Shown: positions 6,725-18,684, counted from the whole stretch's first letter. The stretch: DNA of 21,363 bases, filler included, from Candidatus Woesearchaeota archaeon B3_Woes (GCA_005222965.1; 3 parts of 3 records of this genome joined end to end with filler, not necessarily neighbours in it), one strand, 5' to 3'. The notes: generated from the sequence alone by a model not told the origin. Made by a program: numbers and translations.

Positions 6725-6824
6725 NNNNNNNNNNNNNNNNNNNNNNNNNNNNNNNNNNNNNNNNNNNNTTAATTAATTAANNNNNNNNNNNNNNNNNNNN
6801 NNNNNNNNNNNNNNNNNNNNNNNN
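6725..6824. other. Artificial contig linker (44 N + TTAATTAATTAA + 44 N)
   Basis: Six-frame stop linker within N runs; genes are truncated on both sides. Confidence 0.97.
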
Positions 6825-7049
6825 AGTACTTTAAGCAGGGCATTTTGGTTGGGGAATAGGATGCTTTTACATGGTAGACCTTCAACTTTTGACGAAATAA
6901 AAGAAAAAATTGAAGAAGTAAAAGTGAAAGATGTTCAAAAAATGGCTCAAAATATTTTTACCAAAGATAAAATAAATTTATCTATTGTTGGCCCCTTTAA
7001 AAAAAAGGATAAGGAAGAATACAATTCTCTCCTGCAGAAATTATGTTAG
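6825..7049 (+). CDS. M16 (pitrilysin/insulinase) family peptidase, C-terminal fragment
   Basis: STLSRAFWLGNRMLLHGRPSTFDEIKEKIEEVKVKDVQKMAQNIF...LSIVGP is a typical M16 C-terminus. The frame is open from the contig edge. Confidence 0.8.
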   Translation, partial: STLSRAFWLGNRMLLHGRPSTFDEIKEKIEEVKVKDVQKMAQNIFTKDKINLSIVGPFKKKDKEEYNSLLQKLC

Positions 7050-7229
7050 TCGATAATGAATAGTAATTCGTACCACGTATCGAGTATCGCGTCAAAATAC
7101 AGTAATAAGTGATATGTAATGAGTAATAAGTTTATGATCTTAAGTTTACAAAAACAGGTTACTTGTCACACATTACATATTACAAAACTTACTGGCTAAC
7201 TGGTAAACCGGGTAACCGGCTCACTAACG
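7047..7229 (+). repeat. Cluster of short-period arrays, including inverted GTAATAA-type heptamer arrays (7102-7131 / 7159-7192)
   Basis: TAGTCGATAATGAATAGT, CGTATCG-type array, GTAATAA/GTGATAT/GTAATGA versus TTACTTG/TCACACA/TTACATA, and an 8-mer AAC(T/C)GG(C/G/T)(T/A) array. Part of it is repeated at 13007-13134. Confidence 0.8.
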
Positions 7230-7262
7230 TAATTGACAAATCGGGAATAAGGATACAATAAC

Positions 7263-7451
7263 ATGCCATTAAAATTAGGGATGGGAGATATTATTAGATT
7301 AAAGAAGAAACATCCTTGTGGAGGTTTCCATTGGGAAATTACCAGGACCGGTATTGATATTGGCTTAAAATGTCTTTGTTGTGGCAGAAAAGTGTTAGTT
7401 CCTCGGGTAAAATTAGAGAAGAAAATTAAAGAAATTATTCCCAGAGATTAA
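7263..7451 (+). CDS. DUF951 (YyzM-like) small protein
   Basis: GDIIRLKKKHPCGG..WEITRTGIDIGLKCLCCGRKVLVPR..LEK. Confidence 0.9.
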   Translation: MPLKLGMGDIIRLKKKHPCGGFHWEITRTGIDIGLKCLCCGRKVLVPRVKLEKKIKEIIPRD

Positions 7452-7510
7452 GAAAAAAAATGATATTTTTTAATTTTGTATCCCAAACCTTTTCTTTCTC
7501 TTTAACTTTT

Positions 7511-7678
7511 TACGCAATATCCAATACGATATACAAATTCACAGTTTTCAGTTTACGGTTTTCAGTTAATAGTTGCAAGATATAAATTCATCTAGTTAGT
7601 TATAGTTACCGGGCTAATTGGTTTGATATTAATTTATTAACTAGCTAACTAAATGGATACGCAATATGCGATACGAAT
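7511..7678 (+). repeat. Intergenic short tandem arrays (CAGTTTT-type, AGTTAG/TAACTAG inverted pair, GATACGC-type)
   Basis: CAGTTTTCAGTTTACGGTTTTCAGT is the inverse of the GAAAACTGTCAACTG unit at 10208 and 10967; also TACGCAATATGCGATACGAA. Confidence 0.6.
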
Positions 7679-7684
7679 ATAAAC

Positions 7685-7712
7685 TTGATATCGAAAATAT
7701 CTGTGATATAAT
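7685..7712 (+). promoter_or_regulatory. Sigma70-type promoter for rpsF-rpsR
   Basis: TTGATA-16 nt-TATAAT with extended -10 (TGnTATAAT). Confidence 0.6.
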
Positions 7713-7734
7713 ATAAATCGTTTTATATTTCTAA

Positions 7735-7790
7735 TTTCCTTGCTCCTGAAAAATCTTTCAGGGGCTGATTAAACCGAAAGGAGGTGGTAA
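7735..7790 (+). promoter_or_regulatory. S6:S18 ribosomal protein leader RNA
   Basis: TTTCCTT can pair with the AAGGAGG SD. Inner stem GCTCCTGAAA/TTTCAGGGGC. Unpaired CCG at 7774-7776 just 5' of the SD, upstream of rpsF. Confidence 0.8.
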
Positions 7791-7793
7791 CAG

Positions 7794-8105
7794 ATGAGAA
7801 GTTATGAAGTAATGCTTGCCATAAATCCCCAGTTAGAAGACGAAGAGTTAGATTCCTTATTGACTAAATTCAAAAAGCTTATTACCGACGCAAAAGGAGA
7901 AATAACCAAAACAAATAAATGGGGCAAAAGGAAGTTAGCTTACGAAATTAAGGATTTTACAGAGGCGAATTATGTGGTCTTAAATTTTAATGTGGATGAA
8001 AAAATTATTTTAGAACTTGAAAGAGTTGTAAAGTTAGAAGAGAGAGTTATCAGATATTTATTGACCTTACAACATGAAGGAAAAAGTCAAAATAAGAACA
8101 GTTAA
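7794..8105 (+). CDS. rpsF: 30S ribosomal protein S6
   Basis: MRSYEVM...WGKRKLAYEIK...ELER...VIRYL; strong SD. Confidence 0.97.
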   Translation: MRSYEVMLAINPQLEDEELDSLLTKFKKLITDAKGEITKTNKWGKRKLAYEIKDFTEANYVVLNFNVDEKIILELERVVKLEERVIRYLLTLQHEGKSQNKNS

Positions 8106-8169
8106 TTAATTATTTAAACAAATACCGAAAAGAGAAGGTAGATTATTAAAGGAGGAAAAATATAAATTA

Positions 8170-8400
8170 ATGGCACGATACGGTTTTTTTAGAAGACCAC
8201 AAAGGAAAGTTTGTCTTTTTTGTAAAGAAAAAATATTAGCTGATTATAAGGATGTAGATTTATTAAGAAAATTTATTACTGAACAAGGTAAAATGCTGCC
8301 TCGTAGAGCAACCGGAAACTGCGCAAGACATCAACGTACACTGGCTATATCTATAAAAAGAGCAAGAGAAATAGGGCTTCTCCCTTATGTGGCGAAATAA
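8170..8400 (+). CDS. rpsR: 30S ribosomal protein S18 (zinc-binding C+ form)
   Basis: [51 protein letters not shown]. Confidence 0.97.
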
Positions 8401-8406
8401 GTAAAT

Positions 8407-8670
8407 TAGTATATAGTATGTAGTATTTCGTATATCGTATTTCGTATATCGTTAGGATCTGAATGTTACGCGCCGGTTTATATTCTGGATTCTGACTACT
8501 GGCTCCTGACTTCTATTTTCTTCACGAGATACGAGATACGAATTTATTCTGTATCATGATTTCTATGCTCTTCACGGGATATAACTCACAACATAAAATA
8601 TATAAGATGTGATTTTGATTTTACCATCTTAACTTTTTGTTTTTCACGATATACGATATACTATATACGA
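8407..8670 (+). repeat. Inverted heptamer arrays (T(A/C)GTATA)n ... (ACGATAT)n enclosing further arrays
   Basis: Left arm 8407-8452, right arm 8646-8670. Interior has TTCTGGATTCTGACTACTGGCTCCTGAC and CACGAGATACGAGATACGAA. Confidence 0.85.
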
Positions 8671-8714
8671 AAAAAGTTTTAAACTTTTTTAATACAAAGG
8701 AAGAGGCTTGTTTA

Positions 8715-9677
8715 TTGACTGAACAAATTCCAACTAAATCAATAGTTGAGGGTGCATTTTTAGCCGCAATTACTGCCGTTTTATTTATTATTAGTATTTA
8801 TATTCCCTTACTAGGTACACTGGTAAGTTTTTTGTGCCCTCTCCCGATTATAATTTTATGTTTACGCCATAGCATAAAGTTTGCTATTATCGCAACTTTT
8901 ATATCAGGGATTTTGGTAACTATTTTAGCTGGTCCCCTGCAAGGGCTTATGGTGCTGTTAGGTTTTGGAATATTAGGGCTAACTTTAGGTTTTGGTATAA
9001 AAAAAGGATTATCTTTAACTGATATTATTATCATTGGAAGCATAGCTTCTCTTATTTCTAAAGGTTTAATCCTTTTAATCGGTTTTTGGGTTTTAGATCT
9101 CAACACCGTGTTATTTGACATAGAAGAAATAGATAAAATTATAACTCAATCTTTGAATTTTTATAGCAATATGGGACTATCTCCGGAACAATTAGCTTCC
9201 CTGAAAGATTCCCTAACTCAAACCATTAGTATTGTTAGAATAGCATTCCCGGGAATGATTATTCTTGCTTCAATTTTTGATACTATTTTAAATTACTGGG
9301 TAGCTCGCTTAATCTTAAGGAGATTTGGATATAAGTTAACGAACTTTACTTCCTTCTTTAACTGGAGAGCTTCCAAGTCTTTTTTTTGGAGTTATCTTTT
9401 AGGGATGGTATTGATAATTCTGGGAACAACTTATAAGATACCTCTTTTAAATAAAACTGGAATAAATATACAAGTTTTTTTTGCAGTGGTATTTTTGATT
9501 TATGGTCTTTCTTTAACCGGTTTTATATTAGAGCGGTTTAAAATTAAAAATTTTTTAAAGTGGGTTATATATATTCTGGTATGCTTTCAACCACTTTTAT
9601 CCCAAATTGTTACCTGGGCAGCCATGTTAGATATATGGATAGATTTTAGAAGATTACTTACTGCAAAAAAAGAATAA
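8715..9677 (+). CDS. yybS: YybS/DUF2232 family membrane protein
   Basis: TKSIVEGAFLAAITAVL...PLPIIIL..RH...DIWIDFRR with many hydrophobic segments. Lies between rpsR and rplI. Likely TTG start at 8715 after GAGG. Confidence 0.88.
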   Translation: MTEQIPTKSIVEGAFLAAITAVLFIISIYIPLLGTLVSFLCPLPIIILCLRHSIKFAIIATFISGILVTILAGPLQGLMVLLGFGILGLTLGFGIKKGLSLTDIIIIGSIASLISKGLILLIGFWVLDLNTVLFDIEEIDKIITQSLNFYSNMGLSPEQLASLKDSLTQTISIVRIAFPGMIILASIFDTILNYWVARLILRRFGYKLTNFTSFFNWRASKSFFWSYLLGMVLIILGTTYKIPLLNKTGINIQVFFAVVFLIYGLSLTGFILERFKIKNFLKWVIYILVCFQPLLSQIVTWAAMLDIWIDFRRLLTAKKE

Positions 9678-9682
9678 TTTGA

Positions 9683-10263
9683 TATATCGTATATCGTATA
9701 TCATATATCGTTTAGCAGCAGTTAGCTGGTTACCTGGTTAACTAGTTAAGAAAATAAAAGATAAAAATAAGTAGTCAGGAGCCAGAATCCAGGAGCCAGA
9801 AGATTATTAGCGTATAGCGGGTAGCGTTTAGAGTATAGTTATAGCGAAAAACGAAAAACGAAAAATGAAAAGCGCAAAGCGCAAAACTATATTCGTATCT
9901 CGTATCTCGTGAATCGTATCTCGCAAAAAAACAAATAATTAAAAATATTAAAAAATTAAAAAGTTATATGTTTGAATTTATTTTTCTTTCGAGATACTAG
10001 ATACGAGATACGAACAACGAAATTGTATCTCGTATCTCGCAGATAAGATAGAAGCCAGAAGACAGAATCCAGTATTCAGAATATTTTAGAATATAAGACT
10101 ATATTATCTTGTTAACTTATTTTATATTCTTCTGACTCGTGACTACTGACTCCTGAATTCTTAAATAATAATTATAGCTTTTCGCTTTAAGTTTTTAGTT
10201 ACATGCTGAAAACTGTCAACTGAGAACCTGTATTTGATGCTAACGACTATTCACTAACGACTA
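9683..10263 (+). repeat. Nested cluster of at least seven short tandem-array families
   Basis: TATATCG, GGTTA(G/C/A)CT, AG(G/A)A(G/T)CC, TAGCGTA, AAAA(A/G)CG, CGTATCT and CTAACGA arrays, several with inverted partners. Confidence 0.9.
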
Positions 10264-10270
10264 ATAAATG

Positions 10271-10299
10271 TTGCTAAAATTGATGGAAGAATTTATAAT
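10271..10299 (+). promoter_or_regulatory. Putative sigma70 promoter for rplI-dnaB
   Basis: TTGCTA-17 nt-TATAAT. Confidence 0.5.
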
Positions 10300-10330
10300 A
10301 AATAGAGAATAGAGCAGGGAGGCTTAGAAT

Positions 10331-10816
10331 ATGAAAATAATTTTAAAGCAAAATATTGAAAAAATTGGACAAGTAGGAGATGTAGTTGAAGTAAGCAACG
10401 GCTTTGCCCGTAATTTCTTGATTCCTCAAGGCAAAGCAATTTCTTTTACCATAGGTAATTTTAAACAAGTAGAATATTTAAAGAAACGAGAAATAGAACA
10501 AAAAGAGGGGGAGTTGAAGGAAGTTAAGGAATTAGCAGAGAAAATTAATAATATTTCCATGGAAATTAAAGTTAAAGCCGGGGAAGAAGGGAAGCTTTTC
10601 GGTTCTGTAACAAGCAAAGATATTGTTGAAACTCTGTTAAAGGAACACGGAATTGAATTAGACAAAAAGAAACTTAATTTAAAAGAATCCTTAAAAAAAT
10701 TGGGTGTTCATACTGTATCGGTTAACTTATATAAAGATATAACTCCTCAAATTAAAGTTAATTTAATTTCTGATTCTGCATCTGAGCAGAAAGCAGAGGT
10801 AATAAAAAAAGAATAA
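10331..10816 (+). CDS. rplI: 50S ribosomal protein L9
   Basis: MKIILKQ...GDVVEVSNGFARNFLIPQGKA...GKLFGSVTSKDI. Confidence 0.97.
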   Translation: MKIILKQNIEKIGQVGDVVEVSNGFARNFLIPQGKAISFTIGNFKQVEYLKKREIEQKEGELKEVKELAEKINNISMEIKVKAGEEGKLFGSVTSKDIVETLLKEHGIELDKKKLNLKESLKKLGVHTVSVNLYKDITPQIKVNLISDSASEQKAEVIKKE

Positions 10817-10845
10817 TTTAGTATATAGTATATGGTTACCGTATA

Positions 10846-10958
10846 TAGCGAAAAACGAAAAGCGCAAAACGTAAAACTATAACTAAAAATTAAAAATTTA
10901 GAAAAAAGTTTTGAGTTTTGAATTATGGTTTTTCACTTTTAGCCTTAACTTTTTAGTT
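10846..10958 (+). mobile_element. Empty inverted-array mini-element (TAGCGAAAAA...TTTTTAGTT)
   Basis: Two ~53-nt imperfect inverted arms separated by ~6 nt. 10906-10934 is a 29/29 reverse-complement match to 17752-17780. Confidence 0.7.
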
Positions 10959-10966
10959 GTTATACC

Positions 10967-11029
10967 GAAAACTGTCAACTGAAAACCTGTATTTAATGCT
11001 AACGACTAACGACTATCCACTATCGACTA
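10967..11029 (+). repeat. Direct repeat of 10208-10263
   Basis: GAAAACTGTCAACTGA(A/G)AACCTGTATTT(A/G)ATGCTAACGACTA is 40/42 identical between the copies. Confidence 0.9.
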
Positions 11030-11049
11030 TTTAACAGGGAGAAAAGCAA

Positions 11050-12381
11050 ATGGAATTAGGCAGGAATCCTCCACAAAATATTAGTGCAGAACAGGCTGCT
11101 TTAGGTTCAATGTTGCTTCAGGAAGATGCCATTTTACATGGTGTGGATATTTTAAGACCTGAAGATTTTTACAAAAAATCTCACCAGATTATCTTTAAGT
11201 GTATTCTTGAATTGTTTGAAAAGAGCAGTGGTGTTGATTTAGTTACTTTAACTGAGGAATTAAATAGGGTAAATTTATTAGAAGAGATCGGGGGAGTTAC
11301 CTACCTAACTAATCTAATTAATAGTGTCCCTACTGCAGCAAATGTTGAGTACTACATTAAAATTATCGAAGAAAAATCTATTTTACGTAACTTAATTAAT
11401 AGTGCTACTAAAATTATTTCTATGGGGTATGAAGAAAAAGAAGATGCCAAAGTTTTACTGGATAAAGCAGAACATTTAGTATTCGAAATATCACAGAGAA
11501 ATATAAGGCAATCTTTTGTTCCTATTAAGGAGCTAATTACGGATAGTTATGAAAAAATTGAAGACCTATATCACCGGGAAGAATTTATTACCGGAGTTTC
11601 CAGTGGATTTGACGAATTTGATGAAATTACTACTGGTTTTCAACCTTCTGAGTTTATAGTCATTGCTGGAAGACCTGCTATGGGTAAGACAGCATTTTGT
11701 ATGAGTATTGCTCAATATGCAAGCATATCCAAAAATACACCGGTAGCAATTTTTAGTTTAGAGATGTCAAAGTCTCAATTAGTGCAAAGGATGCTTTGTT
11801 CAGAAGCTCGGATTGATGCCCATAATTTAAGAAAAGGACGATTAGCGGAAAAAGATTGGGCTCCACTTTCTATGGCAGCTGGTCGGTTAGCTTCTGCTCC
11901 CATTTTTATTGATGATACAGCCGGGATTACTTGTTTAGAAATAAAAGCTAAGGCCAGGCGTCTAAAAGCTCAATACAATCTTGGTTTAGTAATTATAGAT
12001 TATTTACAGCTTATTTCAAGTTCCGGCAGAATAGAAAATAGACAGCAGGAGATTTCAGAAATTTCTCGTTCTCTTAAAGGTCTGGCCAGAGAATTAAATG
12101 TCCCGGTAATTGCAGTTTCCCAATTATCCAGAGCAGTAGAACAGAGAATTGAAAGAAGACCCCGTCTTTCTGATTTACGAGAAAGTGGTGCTATTGAACA
12201 GGATGCTGACTTAGTAGTTTTTATATACCGAGAAGAATACTACAAACCTAAGACGGAAAAAAAGAGAATTGCTGAGGTAATTATTAGCAAACAGAGAAAC
12301 GGGCCAACAGGTAAGGTGGAATTAACCTTTATAAAGGAATATGCTAAATTTGAAAATTTAGCCCGTATTTCTGAAGAATAA
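11050..12381 (+). CDS. dnaB: Replicative DNA helicase
   Basis: PPQNISAEQAALG, Walker A GRPAMGKT, IIDYLQL, SQLSR and SDLRESGAIEQDAD; no intein. Confidence 0.98.
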   Translation: MELGRNPPQNISAEQAALGSMLLQEDAILHGVDILRPEDFYKKSHQIIFKCILELFEKSSGVDLVTLTEELNRVNLLEEIGGVTYLTNLINSVPTAANVEYYIKIIEEKSILRNLINSATKIISMGYEEKEDAKVLLDKAEHLVFEISQRNIRQSFVPIKELITDSYEKIEDLYHREEFITGVSSGFDEFDEITTGFQPSEFIVIAGRPAMGKTAFCMSIAQYASISKNTPVAIFSLEMSKSQLVQRMLCSEARIDAHNLRKGRLAEKDWAPLSMAAGRLASAPIFIDDTAGITCLEIKAKARRLKAQYNLGLVIIDYLQLISSSGRIENRQQEISEISRSLKGLARELNVPVIAVSQLSRAVEQRIERRPRLSDLRESGAIEQDADLVVFIYREEYYKPKTEKKRIAEVIISKQRNGPTGKVELTFIKEYAKFENLARISEE

Positions 12382-12533
12382 TTATTTAATAATAACAAAA
12401 TAATAAGTTAGTGTAAACTTTAATGGGGTAGTTAGATAGAAAGAAGAATGCTACTTTTTCTATCTTTTCTTTCGCTTTCTTAGCTCAATACTCAATACGA
12501 ATTTATTCTAATTTCTGGTTTATATTATCTTTA

Positions 12534-12566
12534 CGAGATACGATTCACGAGATACGAGATACGAAT
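12534..12566 (-). repeat. CGTATCT-type heptamer array, exact inverted copy of 9891-9923
   Basis: CGAGATACGATTCACGAGATACGAGATACGAAT is the reverse complement of ATTCGTATCTCGTATCTCGTGAATCGTATCTCG. Confidence 0.9.
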
Positions 12567-12573
12567 CAAGTTA

Positions 12574-12602
12574 TTGACAGGTAGTAAAAAATATAGTAAC
12601 AT
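12574..12602 (+). promoter_or_regulatory. Sigma70 promoter for the tRNA cluster
   Basis: TTGACA-17 nt-TAACAT ending 36 nt upstream of tRNA-Lys. Confidence 0.65.
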
Positions 12603-12638
12603 TTAGAAGCAAAAATTCTTTAATTTTAAATATTTTTA

Positions 12639-12711
12639 GGGCCGTTAGCTCAGTTGGTAGAGCATCTGACTCTTAATCAGAGGGTCGCAGGTTCGAAACC
12701 TGCACGGCCCA
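12639..12711 (+). tRNA. tRNA-Lys(CTT), CCA not encoded
   Basis: Acceptor stem GGGCCGT/ACGGCCC; anticodon arm TCTGA-CTCTTAA-TCAGA; T loop TTCGAAA. Confidence 0.96.
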
Positions 12712-12719
12712 TCGAAAAT

Positions 12720-12794
12720 GCCCCCATCGTCTAGGGGACAGGACACCGCCCTTTCACGGCGGCGACAGGGGTTCAAATCCCCTTGGGGGCACCA
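12720..12794 (+). tRNA. tRNA-Glu(TTC)
   Basis: GCCCCCA/TGGGGGC; CCGCC-CTTTCAC-GGCGG; TTCAAAT; ACCA. Confidence 0.95.
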
Positions 12795-12814
12795 ATTGAT
12801 TTATTGTAAAAAAT

Positions 12815-12890
12815 GGGCGGATAGCTCAGTTGGCAGAGCACCTGCTTCACATGTAGGGGGTCACAGGTTCAAGTCCTGTTCCGCCTACCA
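12815..12890 (+). tRNA. tRNA-Val(CAC)
   Basis: GGGCGGA/TCCGCCT; CCTGC-TTCACAT-GTAGG; TTCAAGT; ACCA. Confidence 0.95.
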
Positions 12891-12910
12891 TTTTTTTATA
12901 AGGATATGAT

Positions 12911-12986
12911 GCCGGCGTAGCTCAATTGGAAGAGCAACGGAATCGTAATCCGTAGGTTGTCTGTTCAACTCAGATCGCCGGCTCCA
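12911..12986 (+). tRNA. tRNA-Thr(CGT)
   Basis: GCCGGCG/CGCCGGC; ACGGA-ATCGTAA-TCCGT; TTCAACT; TCCA. Confidence 0.92.
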
Positions 12987-12993
12987 AATGATA

Positions 12994-13134
12994 GTATCGC
13001 GTATCGCGTATCGAGTATTGCGTTAAAATACAGGAAAAATTAGTAGGGGCAGACCTCGTGTCTGCCCGTAATAAGTAATGAGTTTATGATCTTAAATTTA
13101 TAAAAATAGGTTACTTGTCACACATTACATATTA
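12994..13134 (+). repeat. Second copy of the 7076-7182 repeat, interrupted by a REP-like palindrome
   Basis: CGTATCGAGTAT(T/C)GCGT(T/C)AAAATACAG and AGTTTATGATCTTAA...AGGTTACTTGTCACACATTACATATTA are shared. Confidence 0.88.
13043..13067 (+). repeat. GTAG-family REP-like palindrome
   Basis: GTAG + GGGCAGAC-CTCGT-GTCTGCCC (perfect 8-bp stem). Confidence 0.75.
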
Positions 13135-13139
13135 AAAAA

Positions 13140-13239
13140 NNNNNNNNNNNNNNNNNNNNNNNNNNNNNNNNNNNNNNNNNNNNTTAATTAATTAANNNNN
13201 NNNNNNNNNNNNNNNNNNNNNNNNNNNNNNNNNNNNNNN
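13140..13239. other. Artificial contig linker
   Basis: 44 N + TTAATTAATTAA + 44 N, same as 6725-6824. Confidence 0.97.
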
Positions 13240-13854: not shown

Positions 13855-14117
13855 AACTAAAAAACTTAAAGCGAAAAGCGCAAAACCATAATTTAAAATT
13901 CAAAACTTTTTATTTCGTATCGTATGATGTTTATTGCGTATTGCGTTTGAATTTGTTTTTATAGATTATTCTATTCATTTCTAAGGTTCGGTAAACGGAC
14001 CACTATTAAACTAAAACGTATAATTATAAGCGATAAACGTAATTTAAAACTTAAAAATTTCCTCAATTTTAAATTTTGAGCTATAGCTTTGCGTTTTGCG
14101 CTTTTCTTTTTTCGCTA
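13855..14117 (-). mobile_element. Inverted-array mini-element (TAGCGAAAAA...TTTTTAGTT) with ~150-nt decayed interior
   Basis: Arms 13855-13909 and ~14065-14117 resemble those at 10846-10958 and 17728-18006. A TAGCGTA array lies at 14120-14154. Confidence 0.7.
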
Positions 14118-17015: not shown

Positions 17016-17711
17016 TTATCCATTTACTCCTTTTTCTTTATTTTTAGACCAGGGTTTACCACAGGATAATTCCCCTTCGGGGCAAGGTCCTAAAATGCAA
17101 GGCGGCCCGGCATTTTCAAATATAGTTGGGGCAATTTTTTTAACTTCTCTTAACATATTCATAGCAACTTCTCTAATCTCCCATTGAGCTCTATTGCAAC
17201 ATCTTAATTTAAAGATAAGCAGTAATTCCCGTGCATTTGCAGATATTATCATTTTAGTTGTAACCGCCTGTGGCAAAATATATCTTGCATCTTCTGCTTC
17301 TATATTATGATCTAATAATATATGGTAAATTCTGTCTAATTTTTTAATAGCATTGATAAATATTTTATTTAATTTTTCTTCCTGCGCAATAGATTTTGGA
17401 ACAATATAAGGAAATCCTTTTTCACTTATTTTAACGTACCTTTGGCTTTGTTGAGAAAAAGAAGCAAGCCGATGTCTTACTAACTGATGAGAAGTGACCC
17501 GGGAAATTCCTTCTATAGCAAAAGTAAAAGTGGCATGCTCTAAAACAGAATAATGTCCCAATTTTATTATCTTTTTAATTAAGTTTGTTCTGGATTTATC
17601 AGTAAACTTTTCATTTAATTCATCAATACCTAATTCAGAATAACATAATCTTGCTGACTGAGCTACTATTTTTTCAGGGTCTTTAGTGTAATTTATCAAC
17701 CTAACTTTCAT
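17016..17711 (-). CDS. thyX: FAD-dependent thymidylate synthase
   Basis: HYSVLEH, RHRLASFSQQSQRY, EDARYILP, AQWEIR. Confidence 0.97.
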   Translation of the reverse strand: MKVRLINYTKDPEKIVAQSARLCYSELGIDELNEKFTDKSRTNLIKKIIKLGHYSVLEHATFTFAIEGISRVTSHQLVRHRLASFSQQSQRYVKISEKGFPYIVPKSIAQEEKLNKIFINAIKKLDRIYHILLDHNIEAEDARYILPQAVTTKMIISANARELLLIFKLRCCNRAQWEIREVAMNMLREVKKIAPTIFENAGPPCILGPCPEGELSCGKPWSKNKEKGVNG

Positions 17712-17727
17712 AGAATTAAACTCCTGT

Positions 17728-18006
17728 AACTAAAAACGTAAAGCGAAAAGCGAAAAACCATAATTCAAAACTCAAAACTTATCTTCCTCTTGAGAGTTAA
17801 TATACTTGAACGCAATATATTTGCTAATTCTTTTATTTCGTTTAAAAGTATTCTTCTGTTTGTTATTTATTTTCTTAGTATCTTTCGGTAAATTAGTCCA
17901 ATATATATTCTCTATTATAAGATTTAAAGTAATAATCAAAAAAACCGTCCTAATATTTTAAGTTTTAAGCTAGGGTTTTGCGTTTTGCACTTTTAGTTTT
18001 TCGCTA
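17728..18006 (-). mobile_element. Inverted-array element carrying a decayed four-helix-bundle gene
   Basis: Arms 17728-17780 and ~17958-18006 are imperfect inverted repeats shared with three other copies. Confidence 0.72.
17779..17945 (-). pseudogene. Four-helix-bundle protein (TIGR02436 / 23S rRNA IVP-like) C-terminal remnant
   Basis: Reads FLIITLNLIIENIYWTNLPKDTKK, then in a shifted frame ILLNEIKELANILRSSILTLK(GR*). This resembles the family C-terminus 'F..IALKSANETxYWLxLLRD...LLxExxELxxILxSSILTLK' as recalled from memory. Confidence 0.65.
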
Positions 18007-18079
18007 ATTCTGCTCTCACTTCATGCCCGCGCCTATACGCTATACGCTCTACGCTAGTTCCGCGATACGATATACGAAA

Positions 18080-18658
18080 CTATTTCTTTAGTACTACATG
18101 GCATTTCCGACATCTCGCTTCATAACTTTCTTTTGCTCCAATCAATATGGTTGGATCGCTATACTTTGCTGGCTGACCATTTACTAATCTTTGAGTCCTG
18201 GAAGCAGTATTACCACAAATTATACATATTGCTTGTAACTTATCTACATATTCTGCTACTGCAAGCAATTTAGGTATCGGGCCAAATGGTTCTCCCCTAA
18301 AATCCTGGTCTAAACCTGCAATGATTACCCTTTTCCCTTGATCTGCAAGTTCTTGGCAAATGGATACAATATCATCATCATAAAATTGAGCTTCATCAAT
18401 AGCGATTACCTCAGTATCCGGTTCAATACTTTCTAAAATTTCTTTTGGCTTAGTAATATTTATAGCTTCAACCTTAGTGCCATTATGTGAGTAAATATAC
18501 TGAACAGCGTATCTATTATCAATTGTTGGTTTAAATACCTGAACCTTTTTTTTAGCAATTTGAACTCTACGCACTCTTCTTATTAATTCTTCACTCTTCC
18601 CGCTAAACATACTCCCACATATAACTTCGATCCAACCAGTATTTTCACCTTCACGCAT
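18080..18658 (-). CDS. tdk: Thymidine kinase
   Basis: [32 protein letters not shown], CxxC...[11 protein letters not shown] 18658 follows SD GGAGG. Confidence 0.97.
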
Positions 18659-18684
18659 TTTTTCCCTCCTCTGCACTATAAAAT

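Follow-up and report, generated by a model that had tools for sequence, protein, structure and literature searches.

How the remains of a protein-coding gene came to lie between two inverted arrays of seven-nucleotide repeats, in the short spacer that separates two genes of nucleotide metabolism, is the question raised by this locus. Four-helix-bundle proteins of the "23S rRNA intervening-sequence protein" family are common in bacteria and, to our knowledge, have no known function. Intergenic heptamer repeats are likewise a long-standing unexplained feature. The two meet in the window, which is the whole stretch of DNA analysed here (21,363 nucleotides, filler included). The initial annotation of the window described a decayed four-helix-bundle gene enclosed by inverted arrays. 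It also proposed that such array-bounded cassettes are mobile units with no transposase of their own, and that the other intergenic arrays are their emptied shells.

The reading favoured in this work, to which a probability of about 80% is given with the proposed steps of spreading and processing included, is that the element is an internally deleted copy of a dispersed cassette composed of an arm, a gene and a second arm. The locus and its relatives would join the protein family and the heptamer repeats as one unit. Gene and arms appear to descend together, to point with the host operon and to decay to bare hairpins, and every stage is found in one clade.

Contigs of the window and their host

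Runs of N at 6725-6768, 6781-6824, 13140-13183 and 13196-13239 divide the window into three small contigs. These are C2 (1-6724), C3 (about 6825-13139) and C4 (13240-21363). The remnant sits on C4, in a spacer of 368 nt between tdk and thyX, both of which are encoded on the minus strand. Records with Atribacterota, Atribacteria or Caldatribacteriota in their titles share 77-92% identity with the ThyX of the window, and the gene order rho-rpmE-tdk-thyX-DUF1385-prfA-prmC-phosphatase is common to C4 and Atribacterota records. An archaeal contig of 1.0 Mb, C1, is part of the same bin and holds both eRF1 matches, whereas the sole bacterial RF-1 domain, Rho, DnaB, S6, S18, L9 and L31 are present on C3 and C4 only and are absent from C1. 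Judged by gene content and order, C4 is an Atribacterota contig that was mis-binned with an archaeon. The same is true of C3, because it has the same repeat arms as C4. The quality figures of the bin are 96.23% completeness and 0.46% contamination.

Tandem repeats of period 7, 14 or 21 account for 25 TRF rows on the 6.3-kb C3 and nine on the 8.1-kb C4; the 122 such rows on the 1.0-Mb C1 are mostly A/T-only. The crowding of the small contigs with heptamer arrays is explained by their being mis-binned Atribacterota DNA. A genetic code 25 with TGA read as sense, considered in view of the missing RF2, became superfluous once the mis-binning was recognised. For annotation, two warnings follow from such loci. 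Heptamer spacers break assemblies, with contigs that end in arms, and small repeat-rich bacterial contigs may be binned with an unrelated archaeon.

Structure and lesions of the element

The element occupies 17727-18006 on the minus strand, with two inverted heptamer arms placed around the 3' third of a four-helix-bundle gene (Table 1). The arms pair 17727-17777 with 17956-18006, measure 51 nt each, are 75% complementary and are separated by 178 nt. The enclosure of a decayed gene by inverted arrays, as first described, was borne out. In the 3' arm, TRF detects period 7 at 17732-17756 and at 17754-17779. This arm ends 16 nt short of the thyX start codon, beside the AGGAG ribosome-binding site.

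Table 1. Positions in the window of the tdk-thyX element, its neighbours and the gene-less pairs of the same arms. "Intact" positions are those of the intact cassette
Feature	Position	Strand	Remarks
thyX, downstream flanking gene	17016..17711	-	Pfam Thy1 E 2.3e-71; best relatives are Atribacterota records
3' arm	17727..17779	-	Heptamer array holding the ancestral stop codon
Gene remnant, about codons 69-125 and ancestral TGA	17772..17941	-	BLASTP and DNA match to intact positions 296-511
Deletion junction	17942..17955	-	Gap in the alignment with intact L136, L137 and L158; same in nine truncated copies
5' arm (sense of the tdk-thyX transcript)	17956..18006	-	About 7 heptamer-like units with many A4 runs; forms the inverted repeat with the 3' arm
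Outer heptamer array, CTATACG type on the + strand	18033..18076	-	TRF period 7, 6 copies; left-flank module
tdk, thymidine kinase, upstream flanking gene	18080..18676	-	Pfam TK E 1.7e-60; tdk-thyX synteny conserved
Same arms around nested arrays of other heptamers, DUF2232-rplI spacer	9842..10200	+	9842-9888 is intact 1-46; 10154-10200 is intact 465-511
Gene-less hairpin, loop of about 4-10 nt, rplI-dnaB spacer	10846..10958	+	Intact 1-65 and 455-511
Same arms around about 135 nt of unrelated sequence, phosphatase gene-prmC spacer	13855..14117	-	13855-13916 is intact 451-511 at 92%; 14052-14117 is intact 1-66 at 80%

Both minus-strand reading frames quoted in the initial annotation are present. 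The peptide beginning FLIITLNLIIENIYWTNLPKDTKK belongs to an open stretch at 17775-17957, and the peptide ILLNEIKELANILRSSILTLK lies at 17768-17866 in a different frame. Some details of that description had to be corrected. The TAA at 17781-17779 lies in a third frame, and the ancestral stop is the TGA at 17774-17772, within the first heptamer of the 3' arm. In place of one frameshift, the alignment reveals three 1-nt deletions, near 17855/17854, 17849/17848 and 17787/17786. The loss, described as the 5' half of the gene, amounts in the alignment with intact copies to about 243 nt, which corresponds to the 5' leader and codons 1 to about 68. A single deletion would have taken away the leader together with two thirds of the gene from its 5' end, and the three 1-nt deletions would have come later.

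A complete ORF of about 110-125 codons is absent from the window copy, and the element is a pseudogene remnant. As far as its reading frames tell, this is a dead, internally deleted copy of a cassette which codes for nothing now. A promoter and terminator scan of the spacer returned 2 promoter-like sites, against 2.8 expected, and 0 terminators. Rfam, run at the gathering threshold over the whole window, gave four tRNAs and nothing else.

The parent cassette and the origin of the remnant

Intact copies with the same arms are found at five loci (L136, L137, L158, L207 and L208). The intact cassette is about 511 nt long and comprises a 52-nt heptamer arm, a short leader, a gene of 125 codons for a four-helix-bundle protein and an inverted second arm, the first heptamer of which includes the stop codon. 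In L136, L137 and L158 the 5' arm is located about 245 nt farther upstream than in the window, and the extra DNA completes the 125-codon ORF. The 5' arm of the window matches positions 1-52 of the intact cassette at 81%, and its 3' arm is 94% identical to that of L158.

On TIGR02436, with a cut-off of 24, the proteins of the intact copies reach 87-93 bits, and on PF05635, with a cut-off of 33.8, they reach 76-81 bits. Their dN/dS ratios are 0.04-0.26 in six pairs drawn from four copies, and by this measure the intact cassette genes are under purifying selection. The nearest solved relative by sequence is PDB 2rld (E 7.8e-19, residues 12-120), an "uncharacterized protein" of five chains deposited without an attached function.

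The assignment of the remnant to the family, made by eye in the initial annotation, stands through these intact relatives; the family models alone would have rejected it, as the Pfam and NCBIfam models (TIGR02436/PF05635) gave no match to the remnant fragments even at E<=10. At the DNA level the remnant is 82% identical to the intact cassette over 218 nt. BLASTP against the intact L137 protein gives 68% identity over residues 79-97 (E 3e-7) for the first frame and 67% identity over residues 93-125 (E 3e-9) for the second. With a custom profile built from nine Atribacterota four-helix-bundle proteins, the first fragment ranks 1st of the 1215 six-frame fragments of the window, at 7.1 bits, a score that is matched by one in 1000 dinucleotide shuffles of the spacer. 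On this profile the first fragment aligns to positions 69-112 and the second to positions 99-120, in collinear order and with the right spacing. By these alignments the remnant is a descendant of a gene of the TIGR02436/PF05635 four-helix-bundle family.

That the spacer is plain non-coding heptamer DNA, with a protein resemblance accidental in AT-rich sequence, might be argued from the silence of the family models on the remnant and from the PF05635 search of the genome with which the window is binned, which gave no match, yet this is practically impossible and is refuted by the comparisons made: the 82% identity is to genes that pass both family cut-offs, the BLASTP and shuffling results agree with it, and the blank search is uninformative because the cassette-bearing contig was mis-binned with an archaeon.

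Cassettes across the Atribacterota

PF05635 matches occur in 48 of 86 Atribacterota genomes, and many of them are partial or interrupted by stops. The loci examined number 42, made up of 12 initial ones, 27 new ones and three intact copies of the window-type cassette. At 36 of these there was at least 100 nt on each side, and these were used for a flank test, in which the upstream flank is locally aligned with the reverse complement of the downstream flank. The median score is 20.5 for the cassettes, against 8 for 163 control genes at the same loci and 9 for 1260 cross-pairings. Scores above the 95th percentile of the control genes were obtained for 29 of the 36 cassettes, and 24 exceed that of the cross-pairings, counts that overstate the independent events because related genomes share cassettes by descent. 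The initial annotation let its proposal stand or fall with a likeness of the remnant to four-helix-bundle proteins and with inverted arrays beside the intact members of the family, and both were found.

The co-variation of array type with protein clade, suggested there as a check, was recovered among 35 complete cassettes. For pairs from different loci the correlation between arms and proteins is rho 0.38, a value reached in 0 of 2000 permutations, with p-values inflated by the same shared descent. Between loci, similar arms are restricted to pairs whose proteins share at least 70% identity (median 15.5 versus about 8).

The orientation of the cassettes follows that of their neighbours. The upstream neighbour is on the strand of the cassette in all 39 cases, and 28 of 33 downstream ORFs share that strand. 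Of the five downstream exceptions, at least that in L112 is a spurious antisense ORF; the orthologous L107 has clpX there on the same strand.

Truncated copies, short derivatives and gene-less hairpins

A DNA search with the 280-nt window element against the 86 Atribacterota genomes returned matches in 29 of them, and the 3' arm alone is present in many places at 92-98% identity. Nine truncated copies, the window included, align end to end across one deletion junction. By their flanking ORFs they occupy five spacers: tdk-thyX (the window), clpP-clpX (L129 and L130), hrcA-hemW (L131), dnaJ-mtaB (L132 and L133) and ecfT-truA (L134, L135 and L139). The other eight copies lie away from tdk and thyX, since tblastn with the proteins of the window matched nothing there. 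One junction in nine copies and five contexts indicates that the truncated form was copied after the deletion had taken place. The left flank of the window copy is homologous to the left flank of L130. The truncated architecture is found at further loci (L201, L202, L203 and L205) and, in part, at L204 and L206.

In ten shorter derivatives (L191-L200) the breakpoints differ, and what is left is the arms and 90-130 nt from the end of the unit. All of them retain the 3' end of the ORF adjoining the arm, and three (L192, L193 and L194) are 97-99% identical to an intact copy from another genome. Among the 17 loci fetched for a solo 3' arm, six are hairpins formed by arm, loop and arm, with a loop of about 9 nt, and five have a GC-rich hairpin module upstream of the arm. 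Three more gene-less pairs of the same arms are present in the window itself (Table 1), oriented with the flanking genes. The other array types of the window match the arms of gene-bearing cassettes in relatives.

Taken together, the truncated form behaves like a dispersed non-autonomous derivative, comparable to a transposon miniature, whose further decay would lead to gene-less hairpins. The graded series from intact cassettes through deletion derivatives to bare hairpins supports the notion of emptied shells for the arm family of the window. Some arrays may never have contained a gene.

The arms are far more abundant than the genes. In four public runs, three of DNA and one of RNA, contig depth summed over the 3' arm exceeds that of the flanking genes by a factor of 70 to several hundred. 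Contigs from these runs join both arms directly, or with 8-12 other letters between them, or after shorter remnants; they come from many loci and organisms, and indicate abundance and forms rather than excision at tdk-thyX. Because the 3' arm is far commoner than the gene, arms may also spread without it.

Two GC-rich sequences accompany the arrays. One is a dispersed module that replaces the gene between the arms or next to them; its paired GC-rich hairpins are enclosed by GTAGGGG...CCCCTAC (L025:1-210), and it is also seen upstream of the 3' arm in L140, L147, L150, L151 and L154. A GC-rich palindrome of the form cattgcgag...caatc is placed among heptamer arrays at L117:1365-1400 and upstream of the arm in L144. 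We take it to resemble a repeat that is widespread in anaerobe metagenomes.

Turnover of the tdk-thyX spacer

The distance between tdk and thyX is 38 nt in L026, 12 nt in L029 and 41 nt in L032, against the 368 nt of the window. This comparison marks the insertion as secondary and the spacer as unstable. In further relatives, 300-440 nt made up of hairpin modules and very different heptamer arrays separate the two genes. The 3' arm is kept beside thyX in L025, with GC-rich hairpins where the gene remnant would be. In L161 the left flank of the window and the first 25 nt of the 5' arm are kept and other arrays come after them, and in L159 the arm is flipped.

The whole spacer of L160 and L162 is bounded by inverted (ATAGCGT)n and (ACGCTAT)n arrays, which are of the type of the outer array of the window (18033-18076). 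The 38-nt spacer of L026 resembles these arrays reduced to a single unit each (ATAGCGT, one base, TCGCTAT), and it may be either the seed or a collapsed form of the outer hairpin. The bounding arrays and the one-unit form suggest that hairpins take up new material in their middle, and the unit would spread preferentially into the centre of repeat hairpins already in place. Certain spacers seem to be repeatedly occupied, because the clpP-clpX spacer holds an intact cassette with TATATCG arms in L107 and L112 and a truncated cassette of the window type in L129 and L130.

Origin of the dispersed copies

The arms themselves may be the primary part: a processing or terminator signal, or a REP-like or MITE-like repeat, whether selfish or of the host, that is able to spread independently. 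The gene would then be a passenger in one loop, and most gene-less arrays would never have held one. The depth of the 3' arm in the four runs and its many places per genome fit such an origin, as do hairpins nested inside hairpins and the GC-rich module that takes the place of the gene at five of the 17 solo-arm loci and in L025. It is nevertheless unlikely, since each protein clade has its own arm type and arms are alike only between closely related proteins. Clade-specific arms are expected if gene and arms descend together, and are not what repeated insertion of genes into a shared hairpin would give. The deletion series, in which the 3' end of the ORF always remains beside the arm from the intact gene to the short remnant, and the position of the stop codon within the arm argue in the same direction.

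The present distribution could also have arisen without active mobility, from ancestral cassettes in several spacers that were inherited vertically, decayed, were differentially lost and exchanged sequence through recombination or gene conversion between arrays. The copies at different loci are 77-90% alike, a divergence of 10-23% that is similar to that of thyX (85-93% identity between the same genomes), and for this reason part of the spread could stem from old paralogues that were lost differentially. Inspection of the 70-nt flanks of 12 copies revealed no target-site duplication; a short one could be masked by the heptamer arrays that often make up these flanks. The orthologous site of G103 keeps the left flank of the window and the first 25 nt of the 5' arm, by which part of the tdk-thyX insertion is old, and the flipped arm of L159 points to recombination between arms. 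Against descent and exchange alone stands the single deletion junction that nine truncated copies share in five gene contexts. Solo arms are 96-98% identical across genomes whose thyX genes are 85-88% identical, three short derivatives are nearly identical to the intact copy of another genome, and the clpP-clpX spacer contains different cassettes in different genomes (L107/L112 versus L129/L130). Dispersal without any active movement is on this evidence quite unlikely.

For the dispersed cassette as such, the earlier proposal of a mobile unit is supported, as one deleted derivative lies in five spacers. The proposal that the unit has no transposase of its own agrees with the parent cassette, whose sole ORF is that of the 125-aa four-helix-bundle protein, with no transposase, integrase or adjacent reverse transcriptase; an enzyme of the host may be the mover. 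A reverse transcriptase in this role is neither supported nor excluded by RVT_1, which is found in two of the five genomes with intact cassettes (all incomplete) and never beside the cassettes.

The four-helix-bundle protein could itself be the trans-acting factor of the element, which would bind the heptamer stem as RNA or single-stranded DNA and direct the copying or insertion of units with matching arms. This role is doubtful. If it were correct, copies that are truncated or have no gene would parasitise intact cassettes, and the cassettes would represent a class of mobile element without a transposase, integrase or reverse transcriptase of its own. The rRNA intervening sequences, the intergenic heptamer repeats of several phyla and a protein family without function would then be explained together. 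The natural non-autonomous copies provide a built-in test of action in trans.

The arms as a putative RNA stem

The arms of the window pair in both the MFE and the centroid folds. In the intact copy the arms are also paired in both folds (z -3.58), and the window copy, with its 75% complementary arms, folds no better than its shuffles (z -1.43; 9 of 100 fold as well). Across the nine truncated copies, double changes occur in six of 47 predicted pairs, two of the six being in the arm stems, a number too small to speak on an RNA stem either way. Of the five related genomes searched, four contain RNase III genes. The RNA run contains relatives of thyX and tdk and many copies of the arm, with DNA carry-over possible. 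Neither transcript ends nor cuts by RNase III were observed in the four runs, which consist of contigs, a form of data that does not display ends, strand or level and in which gaps in coverage have no meaning.

The cassette would be co-transcribed with its host operon, and the two arms would then pair into a long RNA stem in the operon transcript. This stem may be cut by RNase III in the way known from intervening sequences of 23S rRNA that contain an ORF. At the window locus, a cut by RNase III would part the tdk and thyX messages just upstream of the ribosome-binding site of thyX. The cut would leave thyX a short leader still with AGGAG, because the 3' arm ends before this site.

Comparison with known systems

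By analogy, the closest of the known systems appears to be the ORF-bearing intervening sequence (IVS) of 23S rRNA. In Coxiella burnetii, according to the part of the source available, the IVS of helix 45 is 428-444 nt long, with a terminal inverted-repeat stem that is cut by RNase III and an S23p ORF in decay (PMC4990558). The same part describes tandem GACAGAT heptamers next to the start of the ORF, in a number that varies between strains, and also names Leptospira, Brucella and Xanthomonas (PMC4990558). As far as this description extends, the IVS and the cassette have in common a small gene of the same family in a loop, terminal inverted repeats that form a stem (as those of the element do), tandem heptamers by the start of the ORF, and an ORF that decays while the RNA element persists. 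The Coxiella heptamer GACAGAT/GACAGAA also makes up the arms of the Atribacterota cassette L115 and long arrays in L117. In contrast to the IVS, the cassette is located in the spacers of protein-coding operons, here tdk-thyX, and not in a helix of 23S rRNA. Its arms are heptamer arrays of about 50 nt, with many copies per genome and several arm types, and its deletion derivatives and gene-less hairpins are dispersed. Cutting by RNase III would apply to the cassette by analogy only.

MITEs are non-autonomous deletion derivatives of transposons with terminal inverted repeats. The cassette resembles them in its terminal inverted repeats, in deletion derivatives that share their ends with a gene-bearing parent and in the occupation of several unrelated intergenic sites. 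It differs in that the only gene of the parent encodes a helical bundle of 125 residues without known catalytic activity and not a transposase, that no target-site duplications were seen among the copies, and that the orientation of the cassette is strictly that of the host operon.

The STRR of cyanobacteria are short tandemly repeated repetitive heptamers. The TAACTGA repeats of Beggiatoaceae are intergenic tandem heptamers with many sets per genome, and the part of the source available mentions one inverted set only and does not contain the terms "intervening sequence", "four helix" or "IVS" (PMC4679880). Within what that part covers, these repeats share with the cassette arrays the restriction of tandem heptamers to intergenic DNA and the many sets per genome, but are mainly direct repeats upstream of genes, whereas the cassette arrays come in inverted pairs that enclose a gene or what is left of it. 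Avd, the accessory protein of diversity-generating retroelements, belongs to the same fold superfamily as the cassette protein. The intact protein, however, reaches just 20.7-25.9 bits on NF033474 (cut-off 80), and no reverse transcriptase stands beside the cassette.

The protein family, the rRNA intervening sequences and the intergenic heptamer repeats are each already known separately. A literature search, with subscription journals mostly outside its scope, found no description of heptamer-armed cassettes of this family outside rRNA or in mRNA spacers, and no account of their deletion derivatives; it returned only the Coxiella IVS and papers on unrelated heptamer repeats.

Other features of the window

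The three contigs differ in content away from the element. C2 carries a cluster of a glycosyltransferase, WecG and radical-SAM/SPASM genes, and heptamer arrays are nearly absent from it (2 TRF rows). At the end of C3, four tRNA genes are arranged in tandem at 12639-12983. They are followed by a heptamer array at 12994-13023, of a type that matches the arms of the cassettes L164, L166, L173 and L176.
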